Assembly: GCF_024282095.1 (NCBI RefSeq)
Contig: NZ_JAMWZS010000008.1
Span: 6,090-70,089, forward strand
Direction: 5' to 3'
Source of the DNA: Nitrosomonas sp.
GTDB taxonomy: Bacteria; Pseudomonadota; Gammaproteobacteria; Burkholderiales; Nitrosomonadaceae
DNA length: 64,000 bases
The notes beneath the pieces were generated by a model. It searched no databases. It had not been told where the DNA came from and saw only the letters and a list, made by a program, of their open reading frames with translations. A program made the translations under genes and the position numbers. Shown here piece after piece: positions 25,067-38,114 of the stretch; position 1 is the stretch's first letter, and every line of letters starts with the position of its first letter.

Positions 25067-25714
25067 TCACTTTTGTTCCATCGTGCTAATGAATGCATTC
25101 GCTTCATTGATTGATTTTTCCATCGAAGCAACCAGCGCGGATACATCGGATTTGATCGTGCCCAATTCGCCTTTGAGCGAAGCAATGGCGCGGGCATTGA
25201 GGTTGTGTTTGAGGAACATGACCTGATCGTGAAACACGGTAAGGATCGGTTCGATTTTGGCTTCGGCTTGTTTCATCGAAGCGATTAACTGACGGTAATG
25301 CGCTTGCGTGCTATCAAGTTTTTTCTGACTGCTTTGTTTCATCGAGGCGTTGCTGTATTGCGTGATTTCCGTTTTCCATTCGGTGAATAACGCTTCGGAA
25401 ACACTTTCTATGTCCGCAATTCGTGTTTTGACTTCGTCGGCTTTGCTGACGCTGGCTTCATACGCGTCATTAAGCCGTTTATAGGTAGCTTCCAGGTCAC
25501 CGCCGCTAAAGTTGGTGGCGGCAGTAAACTGTTCCAGTGCGGATTTGAATTGCTCCTTGGTTTCTTCCTGCGTATCGCGTGCTTTCTCAACTCGCGACAC
25601 CATCACATCGCGTTTCGGAATGCCGATTTTTTCCAGGCCTTCGAGATACATCGTGGTGCAGGCTGTCAGCATCAGCACTATTGAAAGAATGAATAAACGG
25701 GACAGAGTGTTCAT
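25067..25714 (-). CDS. Lipoprotein, probably DUF2959 family, alpha-helical
   Basis: GGAG SD before ATG 25714; lipobox LTAC; GIPKRDVMVSRVEKARDTQEETKEQFKSALEQF recognised by eye. Confidence 0.7.
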   Translation of the reverse strand: MNTLSRLFILSIVLMLTACTTMYLEGLEKIGIPKRDVMVSRVEKARDTQEETKEQFKSALEQFTAATNFSGGDLEATYKRLNDAYEASVSKADEVKTRIADIESVSEALFTEWKTEITQYSNASMKQSSQKKLDSTQAHYRQLIASMKQAEAKIEPILTVFHDQVMFLKHNLNARAIASLKGELGTIKSDVSALVASMEKSINEANAFISTMEQK

Positions 25715-25778
25715 GTTGTTCTCCATTAAAAGGTCTACAGGTTGTTGATTTTTATTGTCTGCTACGAAGTGGTCGGAT

Positions 25779-27773
25779 TTAACGTAACACACCTCGCCGT
25801 AACAACCGCCAAGCTACTTTCAAACCCCATAAGATGGGATGGCGACGCAACATCGGGGTAATTTCGACGCGCACACCGGTGTGCCGCTCAATTTTCCACG
25901 CCGCATATTCGACGCTATTGTTGAAAGTCAACGTGGCTTTGGATAAGCGCAGGATCGACAGAATTTTTCCCTGCCAACGGCGCAAACGCCAGCGCCACAG
26001 TGCCTGTCGTTGTGTCGCTGGATCGGTCAGGCAGCGGTATTTTCCATTGTCTAGTTTTTCCAATATGCCTTGCAGCATGGGAGCTGCCACTTCTGTCAGG
26101 CGGGTAAATGCACCCAGGTTGGCCTGCGCCAGATGGCGCGCGCGCGTTTCGCGCTCTGCCCGCAATTCAGCGGCATAGGTAAGCATCAGACAGCGGGTCC
26201 AGATTTCTTCCACATCGAATATACCTGCCTCGAGTGCTGCGGCTCCCGATTTTAAAAAAGTGACAACAGCGTGCGCCAGCGAAGCATAAATGTGTTCCCG
26301 CACAGCATCATCACGGCAGTACAGCAACCGTGACGGTTGCGCAAAACGCGCCCAAATATACGGATGAAACCAATGCTGCGCACCACGCCTGAAGTCGTGT
26401 GTTGAAATGACGGCGTATTTGGCGCGTAACGTTCTTCCCTGATGCGGTACTTCCACATAAAAAACATTCGGTGCCAGCCAAGCGTTTAAGTTGGCCAAAT
26501 AGCGCTCGGGATAAGCCTTGTGGTAGCTATCCACGATGACATACAAATCGACAATGCCTTCTTCCAGGCTAATGGCGGAATGCAAGCAGGAGCCATACAG
26601 AATCACGGCATCCAGTGACTCGCCAAAGCGCATGATGAGCACATCCACCAACGGGACGAGATCGGGAGATACCGCCTTGTTGCTTTCCCAAGCGACTTCG
26701 TTGAGTAGCCGGATGGGCAGTTGTTCGGTGGATGTGGCTTTAGTATTAGTCATAGTCTTAACAGCGCCTTCCAGCACTAAGAATGTCACAGGATTGGTGG
26801 CAGTAATCCGTAGCGGTTTGTTGGTACTGGCAGATCGATACAATTCACCGTCCACAATATACTCATCATCCATTTGCAGCGTTAAGGAACGGGTGTTATG
26901 GCTGTAATAACCATCTTTTTCCCGCAGCACTTCGCCGCCGCCTGAAATTAACGGCCATATTGAGCGCCACAAGCGTTTGTGGTGTTGATCGACCAATGTC
27001 ACATGCAGCGGCGCCGGTTCTTTTCCCCAGTAGGGACGAATGTTAAGCAACAGGCAATCCAATGCACTGACCAGTGCGAACAGATAAGTGCCTTGATGAG
27101 TTCGCCCATCGGCTTGCATCATGGTCATTGTGACCGGCGCCCATTCATTCTGATGGCGGCCAGATAGCATACCGATCATCATGCCGGCGAGCGAGCGCAG
27201 CATGATCAAAGAAGTAAAAATGCCGCCGGTAATTCCGATTTGCTTGACCGGGCTGCGCGAGAATTTGACGCCGCGTGCAATCAGTCCGACAGCGAAGAAC
27301 ATGCCATAGATTGCCCCCATTCCTGCCTGCTCGATACGTAGTACGGGACGCTGTACCAGCCTGGGTTCCACTGGCCGTAATAGATAATCACGCAAGCGGC
27401 GCAGGATTTGTTCGGGTTTGCCACGCATTCCCAGATCCAATGGCGTCATATTGGTGGTACCGCCCGGTATGACCATCAGCACAGGCCATTTCGCAGGCGC
27501 CAATGCAGCAAACAAATGACCGAGGATCGCATGCGTCGTACCGTCTCCCGCAACAATCACCAGTAAATCGATATTCGCTCGGAGCAATTGATCAATTGCA
27601 CTTTTGAAAGTGATCGCATCGGTAGCTTCGTAGACCATGATACCGGGTATTTCGCTCAATGCCTGCCGGATAGCCGGTTGACATTTACGTGTCTGGCCTC
27701 CCAGTGGGTTGAGCAGGCAACCAACTTTGGCTGTCCCGCTTCTCAAGCGGTCAATCCGTGCTTGTAATGTCAT
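25779..27773 (-). CDS. Fusion: diacylglycerol/ceramide kinase catalytic domain + nucleotidyltransferase-fold (Tam41-like) domain
   Basis: N-half has AGDGT and IPGGTTNM kinase motifs; C-half, from Met at 26753, has ILYGSCLH...GIVDLYVIVD. Single uninterrupted ORF; likely start ATG 27773. Confidence 0.75.
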   Translation of the reverse strand: MTLQARIDRLRSGTAKVGCLLNPLGGQTRKCQPAIRQALSEIPGIMVYEATDAITFKSAIDQLLRANIDLLVIVAGDGTTHAILGHLFAALAPAKWPVLMVIPGGTTNMTPLDLGMRGKPEQILRRLRDYLLRPVEPRLVQRPVLRIEQAGMGAIYGMFFAVGLIARGVKFSRSPVKQIGITGGIFTSLIMLRSLAGMMIGMLSGRHQNEWAPVTMTMMQADGRTHQGTYLFALVSALDCLLLNIRPYWGKEPAPLHVTLVDQHHKRLWRSIWPLISGGGEVLREKDGYYSHNTRSLTLQMDDEYIVDGELYRSASTNKPLRITATNPVTFLVLEGAVKTMTNTKATSTEQLPIRLLNEVAWESNKAVSPDLVPLVDVLIMRFGESLDAVILYGSCLHSAISLEEGIVDLYVIVDSYHKAYPERYLANLNAWLAPNVFYVEVPHQGRTLRAKYAVISTHDFRRGAQHWFHPYIWARFAQPSRLLYCRDDAVREHIYASLAHAVVTFLKSGAAALEAGIFDVEEIWTRCLMLTYAAELRAERETRARHLAQANLGAFTRLTEVAAPMLQGILEKLDNGKYRCLTDPATQRQALWRWRLRRWQGKILSILRLSKATLTFNNSVEYAAWKIERHTGVRVEITPMLRRHPILWGLKVAWRLLRRGVLR

Positions 27774-27789
27774 TGGGTGTGATAAACGA

Positions 27790-29028
27790 TTAATTGGATG
27801 ATACCGGATAGGGCTTTTTGAGATTGATCGGGGCGCGCGTGAATATTTTGACCGCCCATATTTCCCGGTCACGTGCCGGATCGATATCCTGCAGCCAGGA
27901 TTTCAGTGATCCTTCTTTTTGCTTGGTTTTCCAGCCGGTCATCAAGCGCCATACCAGTATACCCGTTGAGATCAAATGCCATGCAACGACCAACAAAAGC
28001 CCGAAATCCGGTTGGCCGGTCAACCATCCATACGTGAGCAACAAAAGATTCGGATTGCGCCGGGCGGTGATGAGCCGATTGAAGGAATCCCATTTGTGCC
28101 AGATGAACATATCAAAGTGTGCCAACCAGAACTGGAACATGCCTTCGCACAAACGTCCGCCGACATAGCCGATGAACATAAGCCACATCAGTATTCCCAA
28201 GCCGGTAATGGGCGTGAGCGTGCTTGCCAAACCGACTCCCCAAGCCAGATACCAGAGTGGTGGATGAATGATATCCAGACCATGATCCAGTACATCGCCG
28301 AGTCGGCTTGACGTCACGGTAACACGTGCCAGTTTCCCGTCCACGGTGTCGAGAAAGGTCATGAACCATCCCATGAGCAGACCCATGCCAAAAAACCCGA
28401 ACCAGAATGCGACCCCAGCCAACACGGCCAAAACGACGCTGAGATACGTGACATGATTGGGTTGCCAGCCTTCCCGGACACAGTAATGTGTCGCCCAGAA
28501 TGCCGGTACCGGCCAGAGCCATTTGGTGACCAGATCGGTCACGCCCTTATACGACCCGGAAAACAGCTCCTGTTCCAATAACGGGCGATTTTCTTCGCTG
28601 ATGGGCAAAATATAAGGCGGATCTTTCTTTTTCAGATTCTGCTGGAAGTCTATTTGCAGATCCTTCAAACCAATGCGCGGAATGGTCAGCAGCACAAAGC
28701 GATAATTCTGGCTCTTGTTATTGTTGAGATTCCTGAGTAATTGCTGCGCTTGATCGCCATCGGTACGTATCGCGGCGGGACAATTTTCGTCGCTGTATAG
28801 CGCTGTTTTTTTCTCCATGCCGAGCAATGCGGTGAGTACCCGGGCATCAAACAGAAAATTGGCGTTCAGGAATAATACAGCAGCACCGGAAGGAATTTTT
28901 TCTACATCCTCAGTAAGGATGATATGTTCTCTCGTTTTCAACATGCGCTGCAAACGCTCACGGCCGGTTAGTCCCCAAATTTTGGTTTCAATTTCACCGA
29001 AGATATAGATATAGGTTGAAGTCGACAT
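27790..29028 (-). CDS. CDP-alcohol phosphatidyltransferase family protein with N-terminal soluble extension
   Basis: Signature D-x2-DG-x2-AR-x8-G-x3-D-x3-D: FLDTVDGKLARVTVTSSRLGDVLDHGLD; several TM helices. Confidence 0.9.
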   Translation of the reverse strand: MSTSTYIYIFGEIETKIWGLTGRERLQRMLKTREHIILTEDVEKIPSGAAVLFLNANFLFDARVLTALLGMEKKTALYSDENCPAAIRTDGDQAQQLLRNLNNNKSQNYRFVLLTIPRIGLKDLQIDFQQNLKKKDPPYILPISEENRPLLEQELFSGSYKGVTDLVTKWLWPVPAFWATHYCVREGWQPNHVTYLSVVLAVLAGVAFWFGFFGMGLLMGWFMTFLDTVDGKLARVTVTSSRLGDVLDHGLDIIHPPLWYLAWGVGLASTLTPITGLGILMWLMFIGYVGGRLCEGMFQFWLAHFDMFIWHKWDSFNRLITARRNPNLLLLTYGWLTGQPDFGLLLVVAWHLISTGILVWRLMTGWKTKQKEGSLKSWLQDIDPARDREIWAVKIFTRAPINLKKPYPVSSN

Positions 29029-29131: not shown

Positions 29132-30193
29132 TTAAAAAGTTCTGCGTAACCATAAAGTTGCTAGAATGATCATGGCAAAACCCGGTACCAGTGCGATGAA
29201 TGCCGGGTTTAAACGTAATATCAAACCCGTATTCGCAATAATTTGATCCAGCAGATAAACGGCAATGCCGATCAACGCAGCAAACACCAGTTTATTGCTC
29301 AAGCCGGTGCGAATCGATCCAAATACAAACGGAATCGACAACAGCAGCATTGCAATCGTCATCAGTGCACTGCCCAATTTACGCCATAGCGCCAACGCAT
29401 ACGAATCCGTATCCTGACCGGTGCTGCGCAGGAATTCCACATGCCTTACCAATTCAAGCGGTGACAGGCTTTCGGGTAATTTGGTGAGGGTTAGAATATC
29501 GTCCGGGTTTAGAAACGACGACCAGTTTAATGAAGCAAGACGGGTCGCTGAAATCTCGTCGTCTTTAAATGTTCTGACGATTACATTGTTTAATTCCCAG
29601 CTATCGTCATCTTTGATATCTGCATATTGGGCCAGGGTGTGCGAGAGTAAAAAACCTTCCTGATCTAGTTGCAGGATTTCAATATCGGCTGCTCTTTTGG
29701 CATGCATCATCTGGCCGATGCGCAGAATATTGTGCTCATTGCGCGTCCAGATTCCCAGATTCCTGCCTAATTCGGCACTGAGCTCCAGCGCGATAGCACG
29801 ATTGGTAATGGCTTTTTGCTGCAACTGGGGCGCGACAAATTGCTCTAGGATCGCGACACTCAGCAACAGTAATATACCAACGCTTAAAGGTGCGAGACTG
29901 ATGCGCAGAGGTGAAATTCCGGCAACCCGTAAAGCGATCAATTCCGAATGAACTGCCAGTTTTCCAAGCGCAATCACTGTACCCAATAAAGCAACAAAAG
30001 GTGCAATTTGGATAAGTCTGCGCGGCACCAACATGGCTGTGTATAAAAATGCATCTTTGATGCGATAGGTGCCTTTGCCGACATCTTCCAATTGATCCAA
30101 TAAATCAAAGAAACTGAATAACGGTAACAAAACCGCTGTGGCAATCATGAAACCGATCGCCACTTGATAAACGATATAGCGATAAATGATCAT
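29132..30193 (-). CDS. lptG: LptG-like (YjgP/YjgQ) permease paralog
   Basis: MIIYRYI start overlapping the lptF-like stop (ATGA); SELIALRVAGIS coupling helix; 3 TM + beta-jellyroll + 3 TM layout. Confidence 0.85.
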   Translation of the reverse strand: MIIYRYIVYQVAIGFMIATAVLLPLFSFFDLLDQLEDVGKGTYRIKDAFLYTAMLVPRRLIQIAPFVALLGTVIALGKLAVHSELIALRVAGISPLRISLAPLSVGILLLLSVAILEQFVAPQLQQKAITNRAIALELSAELGRNLGIWTRNEHNILRIGQMMHAKRAADIEILQLDQEGFLLSHTLAQYADIKDDDSWELNNVIVRTFKDDEISATRLASLNWSSFLNPDDILTLTKLPESLSPLELVRHVEFLRSTGQDTDSYALALWRKLGSALMTIAMLLLSIPFVFGSIRTGLSNKLVFAALIGIAVYLLDQIIANTGLILRLNPAFIALVPGFAMIILATLWLRRTF

Positions 30194-31269
30194 GATTGAC
30201 GCGGGAATCGTTTGCGCTTTGATTTCAATGCATAGATGCCAAGCGCGACTAACATCAGCAGATATAACCACCAAACGCCCGGCACGCTACCCACAACGCC
30301 TTGTTCGACCCAGGTTTTGGCCAGTCCGGTCAAATTATAATAGGCGGCGAAAACAAGCGCTGCGATCAGATACGTTCGATCGGTTTTATCGTGGCGCGGC
30401 GTGGTGCGAATAAACGTCACCGCGATTAAAGCCAGCAGGATGGTAGCAAGCGGGCGGGAAATGCGCCATTGCAATTCCGCAATATCCCGCGGCTGATCGG
30501 ATTCCCACAGCGTTCTCGTGGCGGCGGCCTTGCGCCGGTAATTCAGAACAAAGTCATTATCAATGAAATAAGTCATGTTCCTGAACTGAATGACCTCATC
30601 AATGCTTGCTGCATTGGTTAATTGATATACCACACCCTCGGATAATTGAATATGCGGTCTCAGTTCTTCCGCTGTTGGCTGAATCTGGCGAGCTTGCCTG
30701 GCAATGACGATTTCACTGCTGTCCGGCTTCTTGATATAGTGAAAAATATTCTGCATTTGCTGATCAACATCACTTTTGCTGCGCACATAGACCACCCTGC
30801 CGGTCTTTTCACTGCCATAAAAACGCCCGGCCTGAAAGCGGTTGGTATTTAAGTCCGCTTCAGCCTGCGCGTCCAATATGTAACTTTCCGCATAAGCCCA
30901 AGGCCGTACATACGATGACAGCATGCCGCTGGCGATACCAACCGGTATTGCCACAGTCAGTACGGTAAGGACAATGCGCGTACCACTGACGCCGACAGAG
31001 CGGATTACATTCAATTCCTGATCTTTGTTGAGTCTGCCCAGACCGATAATGACAGAAATATAGAGTGCAATAGGAATGAGTACTTCCAGTGCAATCAGCG
31101 TTTTTAGAAATACCAGTTTGAGCAGTGCGGCGATGCCCAATGTTTCGGTAACAGCGCCAGCCAAAAGCCGGGCGCTGCTGAAGCTGGCGAATAAGCCAAC
31201 CAGAATCAAAATGACTACCGTGAAGGGCAGCGATATTTCGCGCGCGATGTACCGCTCAATTAATTTCAT
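30190..31269 (-). CDS. lptF: LptF-like (YjgP/YjgQ) permease paralog
   Basis: MKLIERYIAREI, LGRLNKDQELNVIRSVGVS, AELQWRISRPL. Confidence 0.85.
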   Translation of the reverse strand: MKLIERYIAREISLPFTVVILILVGLFASFSSARLLAGAVTETLGIAALLKLVFLKTLIALEVLIPIALYISVIIGLGRLNKDQELNVIRSVGVSGTRIVLTVLTVAIPVGIASGMLSSYVRPWAYAESYILDAQAEADLNTNRFQAGRFYGSEKTGRVVYVRSKSDVDQQMQNIFHYIKKPDSSEIVIARQARQIQPTAEELRPHIQLSEGVVYQLTNAASIDEVIQFRNMTYFIDNDFVLNYRRKAAATRTLWESDQPRDIAELQWRISRPLATILLALIAVTFIRTTPRHDKTDRTYLIAALVFAAYYNLTGLAKTWVEQGVVGSVPGVWWLYLLMLVALGIYALKSKRKRFPRQS

Positions 31270-32078
31270 ATATCGGTTTTGAGTATCGACTCAGCAAGCA
31301 CTAAGTCTTCTACTTTATCAACATCTACGCCAGCACGAGGATTATCAAGCACAACGGCCTGTATTTTTACCCCTGATTTTTCTGATACGGCGGCTAATGC
31401 CTGCTGTAGTGTGAGCGACCCAAACAAATAAGACAGTACCATTTTGAATCCAAGCACTTGTCCGATCAAGCGCCAGGGACGTTTGCGCAGCTCTTCAGCT
31501 TGCCGCCAGAATCCGACCAGCATCCGCCCCTGAGGATTGAACATGAACAGATTGCAGCCGCAGAATCCACCGTCGCGCAGCCGTATGACGGTGCGTTTTG
31601 AACCTGGAAATGCGGCGGCGATGTCTTGCTGCCTGATCGTGCCAACAGCAGCATCACACTGCGTTGCCAGGGCGTCGTGTAAAAAACGTTGCACGATATC
31701 GGGTGTGAGCAAGGCATGATCGGCAGTAGTCAATAATACCGGCGTATCGCTCGGTACATGACTGAGACCGCTTTCAGCGCTGCGACTGGGCGAATCCAGA
31801 TTCGGCAGCCAGGTTACTTGTCCGGATGCGATCCGTTGTTTTAATTCCGGACAATGCAGGAGCAAGGATTCGGAAGGGCCGCAGAGAGTAATCGAGGTAA
31901 TCAGATCGCAAGCTGCCAGCGCATCCACAACACGGATAACCATCGGAACGCCGCCAACAGGTGCAAAGGCTTTGCAGGCTGCGCCGGTGTGTTGCGTGAT
32001 GGGATCTTTATTGGTGCGGTCAGCAGCCAGAACCAGTGCGGCGAAACGCTGCGGCGTTGGATAGGATTCAGCGCTCAC
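31266..32078 (-). CDS. Nucleotidyltransferase (MobA-like NTP transferase) family protein
   Basis: ALVLAADR...CKAFAPVGGVPM, LLTTADHALL, DVDKVEDL; GTG start overlaps the upstream TGA (GTGA). Confidence 0.8.
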   Translation of the reverse strand: MSAESYPTPQRFAALVLAADRTNKDPITQHTGAACKAFAPVGGVPMVIRVVDALAACDLITSITLCGPSESLLLHCPELKQRIASGQVTWLPNLDSPSRSAESGLSHVPSDTPVLLTTADHALLTPDIVQRFLHDALATQCDAAVGTIRQQDIAAAFPGSKRTVIRLRDGGFCGCNLFMFNPQGRMLVGFWRQAEELRKRPWRLIGQVLGFKMVLSYLFGSLTLQQALAAVSEKSGVKIQAVVLDNPRAGVDVDKVEDLVLAESILKTDI

Positions 32079-33226
32079 AATGTTTTTCCATAAATACGAT
32101 AGCGTTTGTATTGTTCGCTGCCAATGCTGTCAAGGATACTGCGCATGGCGACGTTGTCTTCCAGTATCCATGACATTTCAACTTCCTGGATGCCGCGCGC
32201 GATTCCCGCTTGCCGTGGCGCATCAATGACCAGGCAAGCCAATGCCAGACCCAGTGGCGTATTGTGAAATTGTTTACGTACGCCCATCAGCGGTATGCGG
32301 CCTGTGCGGATCTGATGATTTCTGATTCTGTTGACCAGTTTGAGCCAGCCAAATGGAAACAGGCTACCGTTTAATTCAGTCAAGACTTCATTGAGATTAG
32401 GCAATCCCACCATGAATGCTGAAGGCTTGCCATCGACTTCGGCGACTTGAATGAATTCATCGGGCAACAACAAACGCAGACTGCTGCCCAGTTCAGCAAA
32501 TTCTTCTCGTGTGAAGGGGATGAATCCCCAATTTTCAGACCAGGCATCGTTAAAAATATCCCGCAGCATTTCCATTTCCGCATCGAATTGATTGCGGTTC
32601 AGTGTACGTAATTTTATTTTTGGAGAAAATCGATTGATCAATATCTGCATGACACGCGGTATTTCAAAATCGACTCTGACTTTATAGGCCAGCAAATCTT
32701 TTACCGGCTGATACCCTTGTTCTTCCAGCAAGCGTCCATACCAACGCGGTGAGTGGGGCATCATGATGACCGGCGGCGTGTCGAATCCATCGACCAGAAT
32801 GCCGCACTCCTGATTGATGGAAAGGTTGAATGGCCCGCTGACTCGGCGGATTTGCCGGGATGCCAGCCATGCTTCTGCATTTAGCATCAGTGCAGCACAT
32901 ACTTCTGCGTCGTCGATGCATTCGAACAGGCCAAAATGACCGCTGTCTGTACCGTAGCGCTCTTGGTGCAAGGAATCGATCTGCGCACTGATGCGTCCAA
33001 CCGCTTGGCCATTTTGAAAGGCTACCCAGGCTTGCCATTCGCCATGTTTAAAAAAAGGATTGAAACGGGAAAAGTGAAAGCGCCGCTCCAAACGTAAAGG
33101 CGGTACCCACAACGGATCATCGGCATAAACATGCCAAGGTACGTCAATGAATTTGCCCATATCACGATAAGACATGACCGGACGCACCGTTACTTTGGAA
33201 TTGCCCGGTTTATCGTGTTTATTCAT
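32075..33226 (-). CDS. GNAT-fold N-acyltransferase, bacterial ceramide synthase (bCerS)-like
   Basis: YADDPLWVPPL, GRISAQID, GHFGLFECIDD, GPFNLSINQECGILVDGF, FNDAWSENWGF, EMSWILEDN; size and neighbourhood match the bCerS family as recalled. Confidence 0.75.
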   Translation of the reverse strand: MNKHDKPGNSKVTVRPVMSYRDMGKFIDVPWHVYADDPLWVPPLRLERRFHFSRFNPFFKHGEWQAWVAFQNGQAVGRISAQIDSLHQERYGTDSGHFGLFECIDDAEVCAALMLNAEAWLASRQIRRVSGPFNLSINQECGILVDGFDTPPVIMMPHSPRWYGRLLEEQGYQPVKDLLAYKVRVDFEIPRVMQILINRFSPKIKLRTLNRNQFDAEMEMLRDIFNDAWSENWGFIPFTREEFAELGSSLRLLLPDEFIQVAEVDGKPSAFMVGLPNLNEVLTELNGSLFPFGWLKLVNRIRNHQIRTGRIPLMGVRKQFHNTPLGLALACLVIDAPRQAGIARGIQEVEMSWILEDNVAMRSILDSIGSEQYKRYRIYGKTL

Positions 33227-33353: not shown

Positions 33354-33839
33354 TTATAAATTAGTATGTTTGAGTAAATTCGATACCAATCGATGAAAAG
33401 TTTCTTTGGGATCCGGTTCCTTATTTGTGGATTGTTTGGTAGGCGCAGCATGATCGGATGCTGAAGGTTGTTCAGCAACAGCACACTTCTCATCAGTGAT
33501 ATTCCGGCAGAAATCACAAAAATTATTCCAATCCGTGTTGTAACTCAGCAGGCGATCCTGTGGAATGAATACGCGCAAAACCTCAAAGTTTTGCTGCATT
33601 TCGGGTAGACGAGAGCACAGGTAAGTATTGATATTTCTGGGCCAGCCTTTATGGGTTGGATACAGAAGCTCCAATTGTGTTTCAATGGTATAGCGAAAAT
33701 TATCAATCGCATTGGCGCGGCGTTTGCGATTAAGAATTTCAACAAATACAGCCACTAACCCCAAAAAGCCAAACAAAACAAATGGCCATAACGGTACAGT
33801 CTCAAAATATCCGGTGATTTGATTAATATTTTCGTCCAA
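33354..33839 (-). CDS. Hypothetical protein with a single N-terminal TM helix
   Basis: 161-aa ORF, hydrophobic LWPFVLFGFLGLVAVFVEIL followed by RKRR; no competing long ORF. Confidence 0.7.
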   Translation of the reverse strand: MDENINQITGYFETVPLWPFVLFGFLGLVAVFVEILNRKRRANAIDNFRYTIETQLELLYPTHKGWPRNINTYLCSRLPEMQQNFEVLRVFIPQDRLLSYNTDWNNFCDFCRNITDEKCAVAEQPSASDHAAPTKQSTNKEPDPKETFHRLVSNLLKHTNL

Positions 33840-34220: not shown

Positions 34221-34478
34221 ATGGTATCCAAGTCTTCTAAAAATGCTGCGGCATCTCAGCCAGAAAGTTTTGAGGCGGCATCGGCTGAGCTGGAAAAAAT
34301 AGTGGCAACCATGGAAACAGGACAAATGTCATTGGAAGCTTCCCTTTCAGCTTATCAGCGCGGAGTTGAATTATTGCAATATTGTCAGAATACACTGCAA
34401 GGTGCGCAACAACAGGTAAAAATACTTGAAGCAGACATGTTAAAAAATTTTACAAGACCTGACAGTGATGAGCGCTGA
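34221..34478 (+). CDS. xseB: Exodeoxyribonuclease VII small subunit
   Basis: SFEAASAELEKIVATMETGQMSLEASLSAYQRG; xseB-ispA-dxs synteny. Confidence 0.93.
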   Translation: MVSKSSKNAAASQPESFEAASAELEKIVATMETGQMSLEASLSAYQRGVELLQYCQNTLQGAQQQVKILEADMLKNFTRPDSDER

Positions 34479-35361
34479 CTTTCAAAGCTGGGCCAGTAAT
34501 TGTCAAGCCAGTATCGAAACGTTTCTTGAGTCCCGATTACCTGCCGCTGATTGTGTTCCTGTTCGATTGCATAAGGCAATGCGTTATGCTGTCTTGGGCG
34601 GCGGAAAGCGAGTGCGGCCTTTATTGTCTTTTGCAGCGGGAGAACTTGCACATGCGGATGTCGAACGCGTGACGGTTGTTGCTGCGGCGACAGAACTTAT
34701 TCATGCGTATTCTCTAGTGCATGATGACCTGCCTTGTATGGATGATGATATTCTGCGACGTGGCAAGCCTACCTGTCATATCGAATTTGATGAGGCCACG
34801 GCATTGTTGACGGGTGATAGTTTACAAACACTCGCGTTTGAGTTGCTGGCGGAAAAACGTCTGGCTGATACGCCCGAGACGCAATTAGCGATGATCACAC
34901 AATTGGCACTGGCTTCCGGTTCGCGTGGTATGGCAGGAGGACAGGCATTTGATCTGGACAGTGTCGGCAAGGCACTCAGTCTGCCGGAACTGGAGTTCAT
35001 GCATATCCATAAAACCGGTGCGTTGATTCGTGCTGCCGTGATGCTGGGAGCCCGTTGCAGCAACCGCTTGGATGATAATCAGTTGAGTAAGCTGGATCAT
35101 TTCGCCAAATGTGTCGGTTTGGCATTTCAGGTGGTTGACGATCTGTTGGACGCTGAAGCAACGACGGCCACATTGGGCAAAACCGCCGGTAAAGATGCTG
35201 AAAATAACAAGCCCACGTATGTCAGTATTCTGGGTATTAGCCAAGCGCGTGAATTGGCGGAAAAATTACAGCATGATGCCGATCAGGCTTTAGATGGTTT
35301 TGGTGAAGCTGCATTAAGGTTGCGTCAAGTAACCGATTTTATAATTAAACGTAAGTTCTAG
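34468..35361 (+). CDS. ispA: Farnesyl diphosphate synthase / polyprenyl synthetase
   Basis: GGKRVRP, SLVHDDLPCMDDD.LRRGKPT, HKTG, FQVVDDLLD, GKTAGKD. Confidence 0.95.
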   Translation: MSADFQSWASNCQASIETFLESRLPAADCVPVRLHKAMRYAVLGGGKRVRPLLSFAAGELAHADVERVTVVAAATELIHAYSLVHDDLPCMDDDILRRGKPTCHIEFDEATALLTGDSLQTLAFELLAEKRLADTPETQLAMITQLALASGSRGMAGGQAFDLDSVGKALSLPELEFMHIHKTGALIRAAVMLGARCSNRLDDNQLSKLDHFAKCVGLAFQVVDDLLDAEATTATLGKTAGKDAENNKPTYVSILGISQARELAEKLQHDADQALDGFGEAALRLRQVTDFIIKRKF

Positions 35362-35395
35362 CATTTTCCTCATTATTTTTATTTTCAGGTTTTGA

Positions 35396-37240
35396 ATGTA
35401 TCCACTGTTAGATATCATTAATTCACCATCCCAATTACGTGAACTGGATCAAAAGAAATTACCGCAGTTTGCCAAGGAACTCCGTAGCTTCTTGATTGAA
35501 TCGGTCGCAAAAACCGGTGGACATTTGTCTTCCAATCTGGGTACCGTCGAATTGACCGTTGCACTACACTACGTTTTTAATACACCGTATGATCAGTTGG
35601 TGTGGGATGTCGGTCATCAGACGTATGCGCACAAAATTCTGACAGGCCGGCGAGATGGCATGAGCAAGCTGCGCATGCAGGGCGGCATAGCCGGATTTCC
35701 ACGCCGCGATGAAAGTGAATATGATGCATTCGGCACCGCGCATTCCAGTACCTCGATCAGCGCCGCGCTGGGTATGGCGGTTGCGGCGCGATTAAACAAG
35801 ACGGATCGGCGTGCAGTGGCGATTATCGGCGACGGTGCGATGAGTGCAGGCATGGCATTTGAAGCACTGAACAATGCCGGTGTGATGGATGCCAATTTGC
35901 TGGTTATCCTGAATGACAATGACATGTCGATATCACGGCCGGTCGGAGCACTCAACAACTATTTAGCCAAGTTGATGTCCGGACGATTCTATGCCACGGC
36001 GCGCCGTGCCGGCGAGAAAGTACTTGGTGTCGTGCCACCCATGCTGGAATTGGCCAAACGCGCGGAAGAGCATGTCAAAGGTATGGTCACACCCGGTACG
36101 CTATTTGAAGAATTCGGATTTAATTACATTGGCCCGATCGACGGCCATGACCTGGATGTTCTGGTTACTACACTGAACAACATCAAGCTCCTGGAGGGAC
36201 CGCAGTTTCTGCATGTGGTTACCCGTAAAGGTGCCGGTTACAAGGTGGCGGAAGAAGATCCCATTCTGTATCACGGTGTTGGCAAGTTTGATCCGGAAAA
36301 AGGAATTGTTGCCAAATCAGCCGGAAAGCCCGCCTATACACAGATATTTGGTGATTGGCTGTGTGACATGGCGGCACAAGACTCCCGCTTGATCGGCATT
36401 ACTCCGGCAATGCGCGAGGGATCCGGGTTGGTGCGCTTTTCACAGGAATATCCTGAGCGTTATTTCGATGTGGGTATCGCCGAGCAACATGCGGTGACAT
36501 TCGCGGCTGGTGCGGCATGTGACGGCTTAAAGCCGGTCGTGGCGATTTATTCAACCTTTCTGCAGCGTGCTTATGATCAATTGATCCATGATGTCGCCAT
36601 CCAGAATTTACCGGTGGTATTTGCCATCGACCGGGCCGGCTTGGTGGGCGCGGATGGCCCAACACACGCGGGTAGTTTTGATTTGTCTTACTTGCGCTGT
36701 ATTCCAAACATGACTGTCATGGCACCCTCTGATGAAAATGAGTGCAGGCAGATGTTATATACCGCCTTTAAACTGGACACGCCATCAGCGGTACGTTATC
36801 CACGGGGAACTGGAACCGGTGTACAGGTTCAAAGGGAAATGCAGGCATTGCCGATCGGCCGGGGCGAAATCCGGCGACAGGGGAAAAAGATTGCTTTCCT
36901 GGCATTTGGCAGCATGCTGACACCGTGTCTGGAAGCAGCAGAAGAACTGAATGCCACGGTGGCTAATATGCGCTTTATCAAACCGTTGGACGATGATCTA
37001 GTGGCATCTCTGGCTGCCAGCCATGATCTGCTGGTTACCGTGGAAGAAAATACCGTGATGGGTGGAGCTGGCGGTGCTGTGACAGAATCCCTCAACAGTC
37101 AGAGAATTGGTGCCCAAGTGTTACAATTAGGATTACCGGACATTTTTATCGATCAGGGTGATCCTGCGCAGATGCTTGTAGATTGCGGATTGGACAAAAA
37201 TGGACTTATTAAATCAGTGCGATCAATATTGCCTGAGTAG
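35396..37240 (+). CDS. dxs: 1-deoxy-D-xylulose-5-phosphate synthase
   Basis: [48 protein letters not shown]. Confidence 0.97.
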
Positions 37241-37307
37241 GTTTCTGGGAGTCGGTCATGTTTGATCGGATTGCTGCCAGGCATATCTTGTTGCACAGGA
37301 GATAAAC

Positions 37308-38114
37308 ATGAATAAACAGATAGACTTACCGATTGCTGATGTACAGAGTTCACCCGATACCCGGCGTATTGCGATCGACCGGGTTGGCATTAAGGCCATA
37401 CGTCATCCTGTGGTTGTAGCGGATAAGGATGGTGGAATACAGCATACCATTGCAGTTTTCAACATGTATGTGAATTTGCCGCACAATTTCAAGGGCACAC
37501 ATATGTCTCGCTTCGTCGAGATACTCAATGGTCATGAACGGGAAATTTCTGTTGAGTCATTCCAGGTAATTTTGCGGGAAATGATCGAGAAATTGGAAAC
37601 GGATTCCGGTCATATTGAGATGACTTTTCCTTATTTCATCAATAAATCCGCACCTGTTTCACAAGTAAGAAGCTTATTGGACTATGAAGTGACATTCATA
37701 GGTGAAATTAAAAATAATGAATACCTCTTTACCATGAAAGTCGTGGTGCCCGTTACCAGCTTATGTCCTTGTTCCAAGAAAATATCCAATTATGGCGCAC
37801 ATAATCAACGCTCACATGTCACCATTTCCGTGCGTACCAACAGTTTTGTATGGATCGAAGACGTTATCAGGATTGCCGAAAATAATGCGTCGTGTGAACT
37901 TTATGGCTTACTGAAACGGCCGGATGAAAAATATGTGACCGAGAAGGCCTACGATAATCCCAAGTTTGTGGAGGATATCGTCAGAGATATCGCGGAAGTG
38001 CTGAATCATGATGCGCGTATTGATGCCTATGTGGTCGAGTCGGAGAATTTTGAGTCGATTCATAATCATTCAGCATATGCGCTGATTGAGAATGATAAGA
38101 AACGCCGCCAGTAA
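37308..38114 (+). CDS. folE2: GTP cyclohydrolase I type 2 (FolE2)
   Basis: [53 protein letters not shown]. Confidence 0.95.

Follow-up and report, generated by a model that had tools for sequence, protein, structure and literature searches.

We find that the adjacent lptF and lptG genes at 29132-31269 of a 64,000-nt stretch of Nitrosomonas sp. DNA (assembly GCF_024282095.1, contig NZ_JAMWZS010000008.1, positions 6,090 to 70,089; the whole stretch is called the window below) are the only such pair in their genome, are embedded in a gene cluster of the ceramide phosphoglycerate (CPG/CPG2) sphingolipid type that includes a bacterial ceramide synthase (bCerS)-like gene, and group in phylogenetic trees with the sphingolipid-cluster (LptF2/LptG2) type rather than with canonical lipopolysaccharide (LPS) transporters. 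We consider it likely that this pair is the sole LptFG of Nitrosomonas, kept from a CPG/CPG2-type sphingolipid cluster, and that it exports a sphingolipid in an organism that has lost both lipid A synthesis and the canonical lptFG genes. The identity of the two genes, their single copy, the absence of lipid A genes across the family, the retention of LptA through LptE, the synteny, and the phylogeny are direct observations. The source genome (2.8 Mb in 81 contigs, 99.97% complete) comes from a Nitrosomonas in the oligotropha/ureae group whose proteins are 96% identical to those of strain Nm84.

Both genes lie on the minus strand and encode full-length members of the LptF/LptG permease family. 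The 359-aa LptF (30190-31269) matches PF03739 at 219 bits and TIGR04407 at 305 bits (cut-off 230), and the LptG encoded at 29132-30193 matches PF03739 at 222 bits and TIGR04408 at 313 bits (cut-off 240), with the two alignments covering positions 1-349 and 1-353 of the 353 in the PF03739 model. The lptG open reading frame as listed spans 29132-30274 (380 aa), but because the stop codon of lptF (30192-30190) overlaps an ATG at 30193 in an ATGA junction (junction letters TCA ATC ATG A), the protein most likely runs from 30193 to 29132 (353 aa, MIIYRYI...), with its translation coupled to that of lptF. LptF and LptG align end to end with the respective chains in the Protein Data Bank (PDB), over residues 3-345 and 3-350, and their predicted architecture matches that of solved LptF and LptG structures, with six transmembrane (TM) helices and a periplasmic beta-jellyroll between TM3 and TM4. 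The glutamates that couple the permeases to LptB (E84 of Escherichia coli LptF and E88 of LptG) are also retained, with Glu at both aligned columns in 5 of 5 Nitrosomonadaceae sequences.

A whole-genome search with the PF03739 profile matched only these two genes, and exactly two matches, or one pair, were found in 40 of 41 high-quality Nitrosomonadaceae genomes. An earlier, sequence-only reading of the window had described the genes as a second LptFG pair, a description that this count overturns. It had also taken a sole pair as evidence against a role in sphingolipid export; because that expectation presumed an LPS-making organism, the functional idea survives the sole-pair result. The one genome that departs from the pattern (G055) carries a third, isolated PF03739 gene (C1:210206-211237, 220 bits) far from its cluster pair.

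The other components of the Lpt bridge are all retained in the genome. As the sequence-only reading had pointed out, the window holds no lptA, lptB, or lptC and no pepA or holC, and we locate these genes on other contigs. An lptC-lptA-lptB-rpoN-hpf run lies on C63, the gene for the LptE lipoprotein lies between leuS and holA on C65, and the single lptD gene is split over two contig ends (C70:13-1311 and C45:4729-5576), so these contigs are probably neighbors in the chromosome. The pepA and holC genes, found on C35, face an unrelated gene and have no lptFG beside them, leaving an empty pepA site.

In contrast to the Lpt genes, the pathway for the canonical Lpt substrate is almost entirely missing. 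When E. coli K-12 proteins for the synthesis of lipid A and 3-deoxy-D-manno-oct-2-ulosonic acid (Kdo) were used as tblastn queries against the genome, no match was obtained even at E <= 10 for LpxA, LpxB, LpxC, LpxD, LpxH, LpxL, WaaA, KdsC, or KdsD; the only matches were to LpxK and a KdsB-like cytidylyltransferase. None of 19 genomes of the genus, closed ones included, encodes LpxC (PF03331), nor does any of 81 in the family, whereas 11 of the 12 sister families of the order have it. The loss has left a visible trace at C26:68515-73353, which reads rseP-bamA-skp-fabZ-rnhB where the standard order is rseP-bamA-skp-lpxD-fabZ-lpxA-lpxB-rnhB; this is a clean deletion scar, with exactly lpxD gone from the skp-fabZ interval and lpxA-lpxB from the fabZ-rnhB interval. 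Similarly, kdsD and kdsC are missing upstream of lptC-lptA-lptB-rpoN. An assembly artifact was considered as the source of the missing lpx genes and rejected, as there are no runs of N and the flanking genes are contiguous; the closed genomes of the genus, which likewise have no LpxC, also counter it. These results agree with an earlier report (Opiyo et al. 2010; PMC3087551), in which lpxK was the one gene of the nine for Kdo2-lipid A present in N. europaea. The suggestion that the window pair borrows LptB from an LPS system also falls away here, since with the lipid A (Raetz) pathway and the canonical pair lost there is no LPS system to borrow from.

The orphan LpxK is encoded at C28:8456-9463 (PF02606, 240 bits; TIGR00682, 150 bits against a cut-off of 92). 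Within the family, it is kept only in the genus of the window and is absent from the three other Nitrosomonadaceae genera sampled; it is also absent from all other bCerS-positive genomes without LpxC, and outside Nitrosomonas it tracks LpxC perfectly. On the strength of this distribution, LpxK looks like a lineage-specific relic. Its absence from the three family genera and from the other LpxC-less, bCerS-positive genomes also led us to reject LpxK as a retasked partner of the system in general. The KdsB-like cytidylyltransferase, encoded at C42:31079-32607 with a gene for an HpcH/HpaI-type aldolase directly after it, is 35% identical to E. coli KdsB and matches PF02348. No KdsA, KdsC, KdsD, or WaaA is found in the genome alongside it, and the enzyme may serve to activate some other acidic sugar or acid.

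The phylogenetic position of the pair was assessed by pairwise scores and by maximum-likelihood trees (LG+C20 PMSF, posterior mean site frequency model) of 59 LptF and 63 LptG rows. LptF from the window scores 183 bits (33% identity) against the sphingolipid-cluster LptF of Pseudocitrobacter, but its scores fall to 69-135 bits with canonical LptF from 11 betaproteobacterial sister families and to 78 bits with the E. coli protein. For LptG the ranges overlap, at 97-170 bits for the canonical proteins of the sister families and 160-167 bits for the enterobacterial LptG2. In the trees, the Nitrosomonadaceae proteins form a clade with the cluster-linked LptF2/LptG2 of Enterobacteriaceae and of the gammaproteobacterial genome G288 (99% support for LptF and 98% for LptG in the Shimodaira-Hasegawa-like approximate likelihood ratio test, SH-aLRT), the canonical proteins of the 11 sister families form a clade of their own (99%), and the LptF and LptG trees are congruent. 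Forcing the Nitrosomonadaceae proteins to group with the canonical proteins is rejected by the approximately unbiased (AU) test, both for LptF (log-likelihood difference 51, p 0.0019) and for LptG (difference 38, p 0.0070). The sequence-only reading had named branching with canonical LPS transporters as a result that would count against it; the support values and AU rejections place the pair with cluster-linked LptF2/LptG2 instead. Synteny in the G288 genome supports the trees independently. This genome encodes LpxC and has two pairs: its linked pair stands in the bCerS-NT3-lptF-lptG order, as in the window, and adjoins aasR-cerR-acp-spt, and its other pair is divergent from pepA.

Within the larger trees, the gammaproteobacterial and betaproteobacterial cluster-linked LptF2/LptG2 (L052, L054, and L145) sit inside the gamma/beta LptFG super-clade and apart from the clade holding the alphaproteobacterial LptF2/LptG2 and the pairs of LPS-less genomes (L147-L153 and L165-L178). 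This placement suggests either repeated recruitment of LptFG to sphingolipid clusters or a transfer of the cluster followed by capture of a local copy. The gamma/beta LptF2/LptG2 would seem to have an origin distinct from that of the alphaproteobacterial proteins.

Two other lines of comparison proved less discriminating. The NCBIfam equivalog models TIGR04407 and TIGR04408 also accept the enterobacterial LptF2 (291 bits) and LptG2 (298 bits) and the sole pair of an LpxC-less alphaproteobacterium (266 and 306 bits), with a canonical betaproteobacterial pair scoring 384 bits on each model and the window pair 305 and 313. We therefore rejected an equivalog score as proof of canonical identity, since known LptF2/LptG2 and sole pairs of LPS-less genomes pass as well; the "LPS export permease" name is not diagnostic, and automatic annotation calls all these pairs LPS exporters. 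The sequence-only reading had also looked to the charge of the transport cavity. Starting from the lipid A phosphate contacts described for Shigella and E. coli LptFG (PMC6744409), we compared the positions of E. coli LptG K34, K40, R133, and R136 and LptF R33 and K317. These contacts are unconserved even among canonical betaproteobacterial proteins (K34, for example, is replaced by D), and canonical and sphingolipid-type proteins alike retain R33 and R136, such that the comparison cannot separate cargoes at the sequence level.

The genes surrounding the pair link it closely to sphingolipid synthesis, with bCerS- and CC_1153-like genes on one side of lptFG, CpgA-, CpgB-, and CpgC-like genes on the other, and overlapping junctions throughout much of the operon-like run, all of which is read from the minus strand. 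The first gene (32075-33226) encodes a 383-aa bCerS-like N-acyltransferase, a bacterial ceramide synthase homolog with only a weak GNAT match, that is 50% identical to the protein in the bCerS position of the Pseudocitrobacter spt/cerR/aasR cluster; its N. eutropha ortholog, Neut_1100, shares 41% identity with the Caulobacter enzyme, CC_1154 (PMC11324152). It is followed by a gene for a MobA/CofC-like NTP transferase (31266-32078; PF12804, 57 bits), which resembles CC_1153 and corresponds to Neut_1101, and which overlaps the bCerS-like gene on one side and lptF on the other by 4 nt each. The coupling of an LptF-like/LptG-like gene pair to the NTP transferase and bCerS-like genes, as proposed from the sequence alone, is upheld by these 4-nt overlaps and by the ATGA junction within the pair. 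Downstream of lptG, a 103-nt gap precedes a CpgA-like (CC_1159-like) gene (27790-29028), whose product combines a nucleotidyltransferase-like N-terminal domain with a CDP-alcohol phosphatidyltransferase domain (PF01066, PF13562) and whose N. eutropha ortholog, Neut_1104, is 41% identical to CC_1159 (PMC11324152). The next gene (25779-27872) encodes a 697-aa in-frame fusion of a CpgB-like ceramide/lipid kinase (DAGK_cat; PF00781 at residues 52-168) and a CpgC-like Tam41-type domain (PF09139 at residues 452-592), and corresponds to two genes in N. eutropha, Neut_1105 and Neut_1106. The run ends with a gene for a DUF2959 protein (25067-25792; PF11172, 276 bits), which overlaps the kinase gene by 14 nt.

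Essentially every locus recovered from Nitrosomonas, Nitrosospira, and Nitrosovibrio keeps this gene order. The published comparison of these systems lists Neut_1100-1106 as counterparts of the Caulobacter sphingolipid genes bCerS (CC_1154), CC_1153, LptF2/G2 (CC_1156/1155), CC_1159, CC_1160 (ceramide kinase), and CC_1161, with a weak match between the N. eutropha and Caulobacter LptF and LptG proteins (24-33% identity, E 1e-9 and 6e-15) (Olea-Ozuna et al. 2024; PMC11324152). In Caulobacter, the products of CC_1160 (cpgB) and CC_1161 (cpgC) add the first phosphoglycerate of CPG2, whose second phosphoglycerate depends on CC_1159 (cpgA) together with cpgD (PMC12275187). The remaining ceramide genes, spt, acp, cerR, and aasR, lie on a separate contig of the genome, C79.

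Several further features of the locus were noted. The CpgB-like and CpgC-like parts, fused in the window, also share one frame in about 15 of the 38 related loci examined; in the rest a stop or a frame change splits them, and the fusion, judged from these sequences, is evolutionarily labile. A 161-aa protein with no family match is encoded ahead of bCerS (33354-33839, minus strand), and its gene and the DUF2959 gene, both outside the published Caulobacter gene set, are kept at their positions in most Nitrosomonas loci. Divergent from the cluster are ispA, dxs, and folE2 (34465-38114, plus strand), whose adjacency is conserved across Nitrosomonas loci and which have no evident functional tie to it. 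Promoter and terminator scans across the cluster returned matches at chance level. The best 120 matches in a search for bCerS homologs were all near-identical Nitrosomonas proteins, with no distant gene context among them.

Taken with the genome-wide losses, this organization points to the following scheme, which we see as the most economical. Nitrosomonadaceae would have lost lipid A and Kdo synthesis together with the canonical, pepA-linked lptFG pair, and would have kept the lptFG of the sphingolipid cluster alongside the canonical LptB, LptC, LptA, LptD, and LptE. Ceramide would be made by Spt, AcpR, CerR, and AasR, encoded on the other contig, and by bCerS, and would then be phosphorylated and decorated by the CpgB/C-, CpgA-, and CC_1153-like enzymes flanking lptFG, after which the LptFG pair would extract the anionic CPG-type sphingolipid for the outer membrane. 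The lipid made, its role as cargo, and its route are the parts of this explanation that we infer.

Comparison with known systems lends context to this scheme. The LptF2/G2 of Caulobacter crescentus (CCNA_01214/01213; CC_1156/CC_1155), which are thought to extract an anionic sphingolipid from the inner membrane, are likewise found within a ceramide/CPG2 cluster next to bCerS, and in neither organism does the cluster include a dedicated LptB; by analogy, the window pair would use the single LptB of the cell. The two systems differ in that Caulobacter has a canonical pair, LPS, and an LptC2, whereas in Nitrosomonas this pair stands alone, the lipid A pathway is missing, and the only LptC is the one in canonical context, and in that the alphaproteobacterial, Caulobacter-type LptF2/G2 form a clade separate from the gamma/beta group that holds the window pair. 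Another parallel is found in Sphingomonadaceae such as S. wittichii, which have a single cluster-linked pair, lack LpxC, LpxB, and WaaA, and still encode LptA, LptD, and LptE. As Sphingomonadaceae belong to a different class and their sole pair to a different LptFG clade, the sole-pair state must have arisen independently in Nitrosomonas; sphingomonads are also known to make glycosphingolipids, whereas the Nitrosomonas cluster encodes CPG-type phosphoglycerate head-group enzymes. Our reading of Nitrosomonas fits the recent proposal that the sole, cluster-linked LptFG of LPS-less Sphingomonas is a dedicated sphingolipid transporter, as well as the findings that Caulobacter LptF2/G2 bind the single LptB and are essential only once anionic sphingolipid is made (Uchendu, Isom, and Klein 2026; bioRxiv 10.64898/2026.04.12.717747).

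The closest relatives of the window pair found outside the family, at about 33% identity, are the enterobacterial LptF2/G2 of Pseudocitrobacter and of the E. coli BL21/UTI89-type locus, which adjoin spt-acp-cerR-aasR and bCerS. Unlike Nitrosomonas, their hosts retain the canonical pepA-linked lptFG and LPS, and no cpgA-, cpgB-, or cpgC-like genes were detected in these enterobacterial loci. The canonical E. coli LptB2FG shares with the window pair its family, full-length architecture, coupling-helix glutamates, and passage of the equivalog cut-offs, but identity is only 22% for LptF and 29% for LptG, and the window pair is neither linked to pepA nor accompanied in its genome by the pathway for a lipid A substrate.

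A phylum-wide survey shows how common each arrangement is. Of 401 genomes searched for bCerS, 39 were positive, and we counted LptF/G pairs and LpxC in the 36 positives outside Nitrosomonas. Of the 23 genomes lacking LpxC, 21 had exactly one pair, which typically lay no more than a few kb from bCerS, the same sole-pair state as in LPS-less Sphingomonadaceae, whereas 8 of the 13 genomes with LpxC had two pairs, one of them usually next to bCerS. One complete 5.4-Mb genome from a different family (G307) has a bCerS homolog but neither LpxC nor LptF/G, and may represent a sphingolipid producer that uses another export route.

Some of our own results weigh against sphingolipid export by a pair of LptF2/LptG2 origin. 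The window pair and the LptF2/LptG2 proteins are all on long branches, whose attraction may inflate the grouping, and the AU test is open to the same bias. At the sequence level, cavity residues do not tell cargoes apart. The retained LpxK passes its equivalog cut-off, and with the KdsB-like enzyme also present another phosphorylated glycolipid is possible. Finally, in the literature we searched, ceramide, CPG, and CPG2 are nowhere reported for an ammonia oxidizer, nor did we find a lipid analysis showing sphingolipids in these organisms, so the product of the cluster is itself deduced from its genes.

The long branches raise the question of whether the pair could instead be a vertically inherited canonical LptFG that diverged quickly after LPS loss and was relocated into the cluster, or had sphingolipid genes inserted beside it, and now serves the same function; its grouping with LptF2/LptG2 would then reflect long-branch attraction or convergence. 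The overlap between the LptG scores of canonical proteins (97-170 bits) and enterobacterial LptG2 (160-167 bits) is in keeping with such a history, as is the position of the whole LptF2/LptG2 group inside the gamma/beta super-clade with canonical proteins. We nonetheless regard it as unlikely, given that the AU test rejects, for LptF and LptG alike, trees uniting the pair with canonical proteins from its order, that LptF scores 183 bits against the enterobacterial LptF2 and 69-135 bits against those canonical proteins, that the identical bCerS-NT3-lptF-lptG order occurs in G288 beside a separate pepA-linked pair, and that the pepA site in the Nitrosomonas genome is empty. The cargo could also be broader or different, with an LpxK-phosphorylated glycolipid, an ornithine lipid, or a hopanoid conjugate extracted with or instead of a sphingolipid. 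The genus does keep an LpxK that passes TIGR00682 and a KdsB-like cytidylyltransferase with an aldolase neighbor on C42, and in Bacteroidota and myxobacteria one LptFG serves cells that produce LPS as well as sphingolipid (bioRxiv 10.64898/2026.04.12.717747). However, LpxK is missing from the three other sampled genera of the family, all of which have this lptFG cluster, translational coupling ties the pair to sphingolipid enzymes on either side, and no pathway for another Lpt-sized cargo was identified, making this alternative improbable in our view.

Least probable by far, and in our judgment hardly credible, is the version given by the sequence-only reading, in which the pair is a second, paralogous LptFG beside a canonical LPS-exporting pair whose LptB it shares. 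Such an arrangement is known in Caulobacter and in the 8 of 13 genomes with both LpxC and bCerS, but the assembled Nitrosomonas genome has no other PF03739 gene, the family has one pair in 40 of 41 genomes and LpxC in 0 of 81, lpxA, lpxB, and lpxD are deleted from their conserved cluster, and a single pair without LpxC is also what closed Nitrosomonas genomes (G005, G008, and others) show. Of that earlier version, the idea of a non-LPS, sphingolipid cargo is favored by gene context, phylogeny, and the absence of the lipid A pathway, and it is the paralog framing that has to be given up, as the canonical pair has been lost.

Viewed at the level of the family, sphingolipid export by the sole, cluster-derived LptFG would carry wider implications. 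We tentatively put forward, at somewhat short of even confidence, that Nitrosomonadaceae, a betaproteobacterial group of global biogeochemical importance, are a second independent natural lineage to have replaced LPS by an anionic sphingolipid, with LptF2/G2 displacing the canonical LptFG and the LptB/C/A/D/E bridge kept. The individual pieces have been published one by one, namely the lipid A genes of N. europaea (2010), the N. eutropha cluster (2024), and LPS-less Sphingomonas (2026); our literature search found no paper linking a sole LptFG, LPS loss, and sphingolipid export in ammonia oxidizers, and their synthesis for Nitrosomonadaceae appears to be new. Such a replacement of LPS would imply that the choice of cargo resides in LptFG, the remaining bridge being largely cargo-agnostic. 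If the LptF2/G2 lineages do have separate origins, LptFG would have been recruited to sphingolipid export at least twice. With an outer leaflet of anionic sphingolipid delivered by a retasked Lpt machine, Nitrosomonadaceae would offer a natural, non-pathogenic system for learning which Lpt component sets cargo specificity, a question left by the Caulobacter work for LptA, LptD, and LptE, and annotation pipelines would be mislabeling their LptFG as "LPS export". As Nitrosomonadaceae are the ammonia oxidizers that drive nitrification in soils and wastewater plants, theirs would be an envelope that departs from the textbook Gram-negative one, with consequences for polymyxin and detergent sensitivity, endotoxin assays, and phage receptors.

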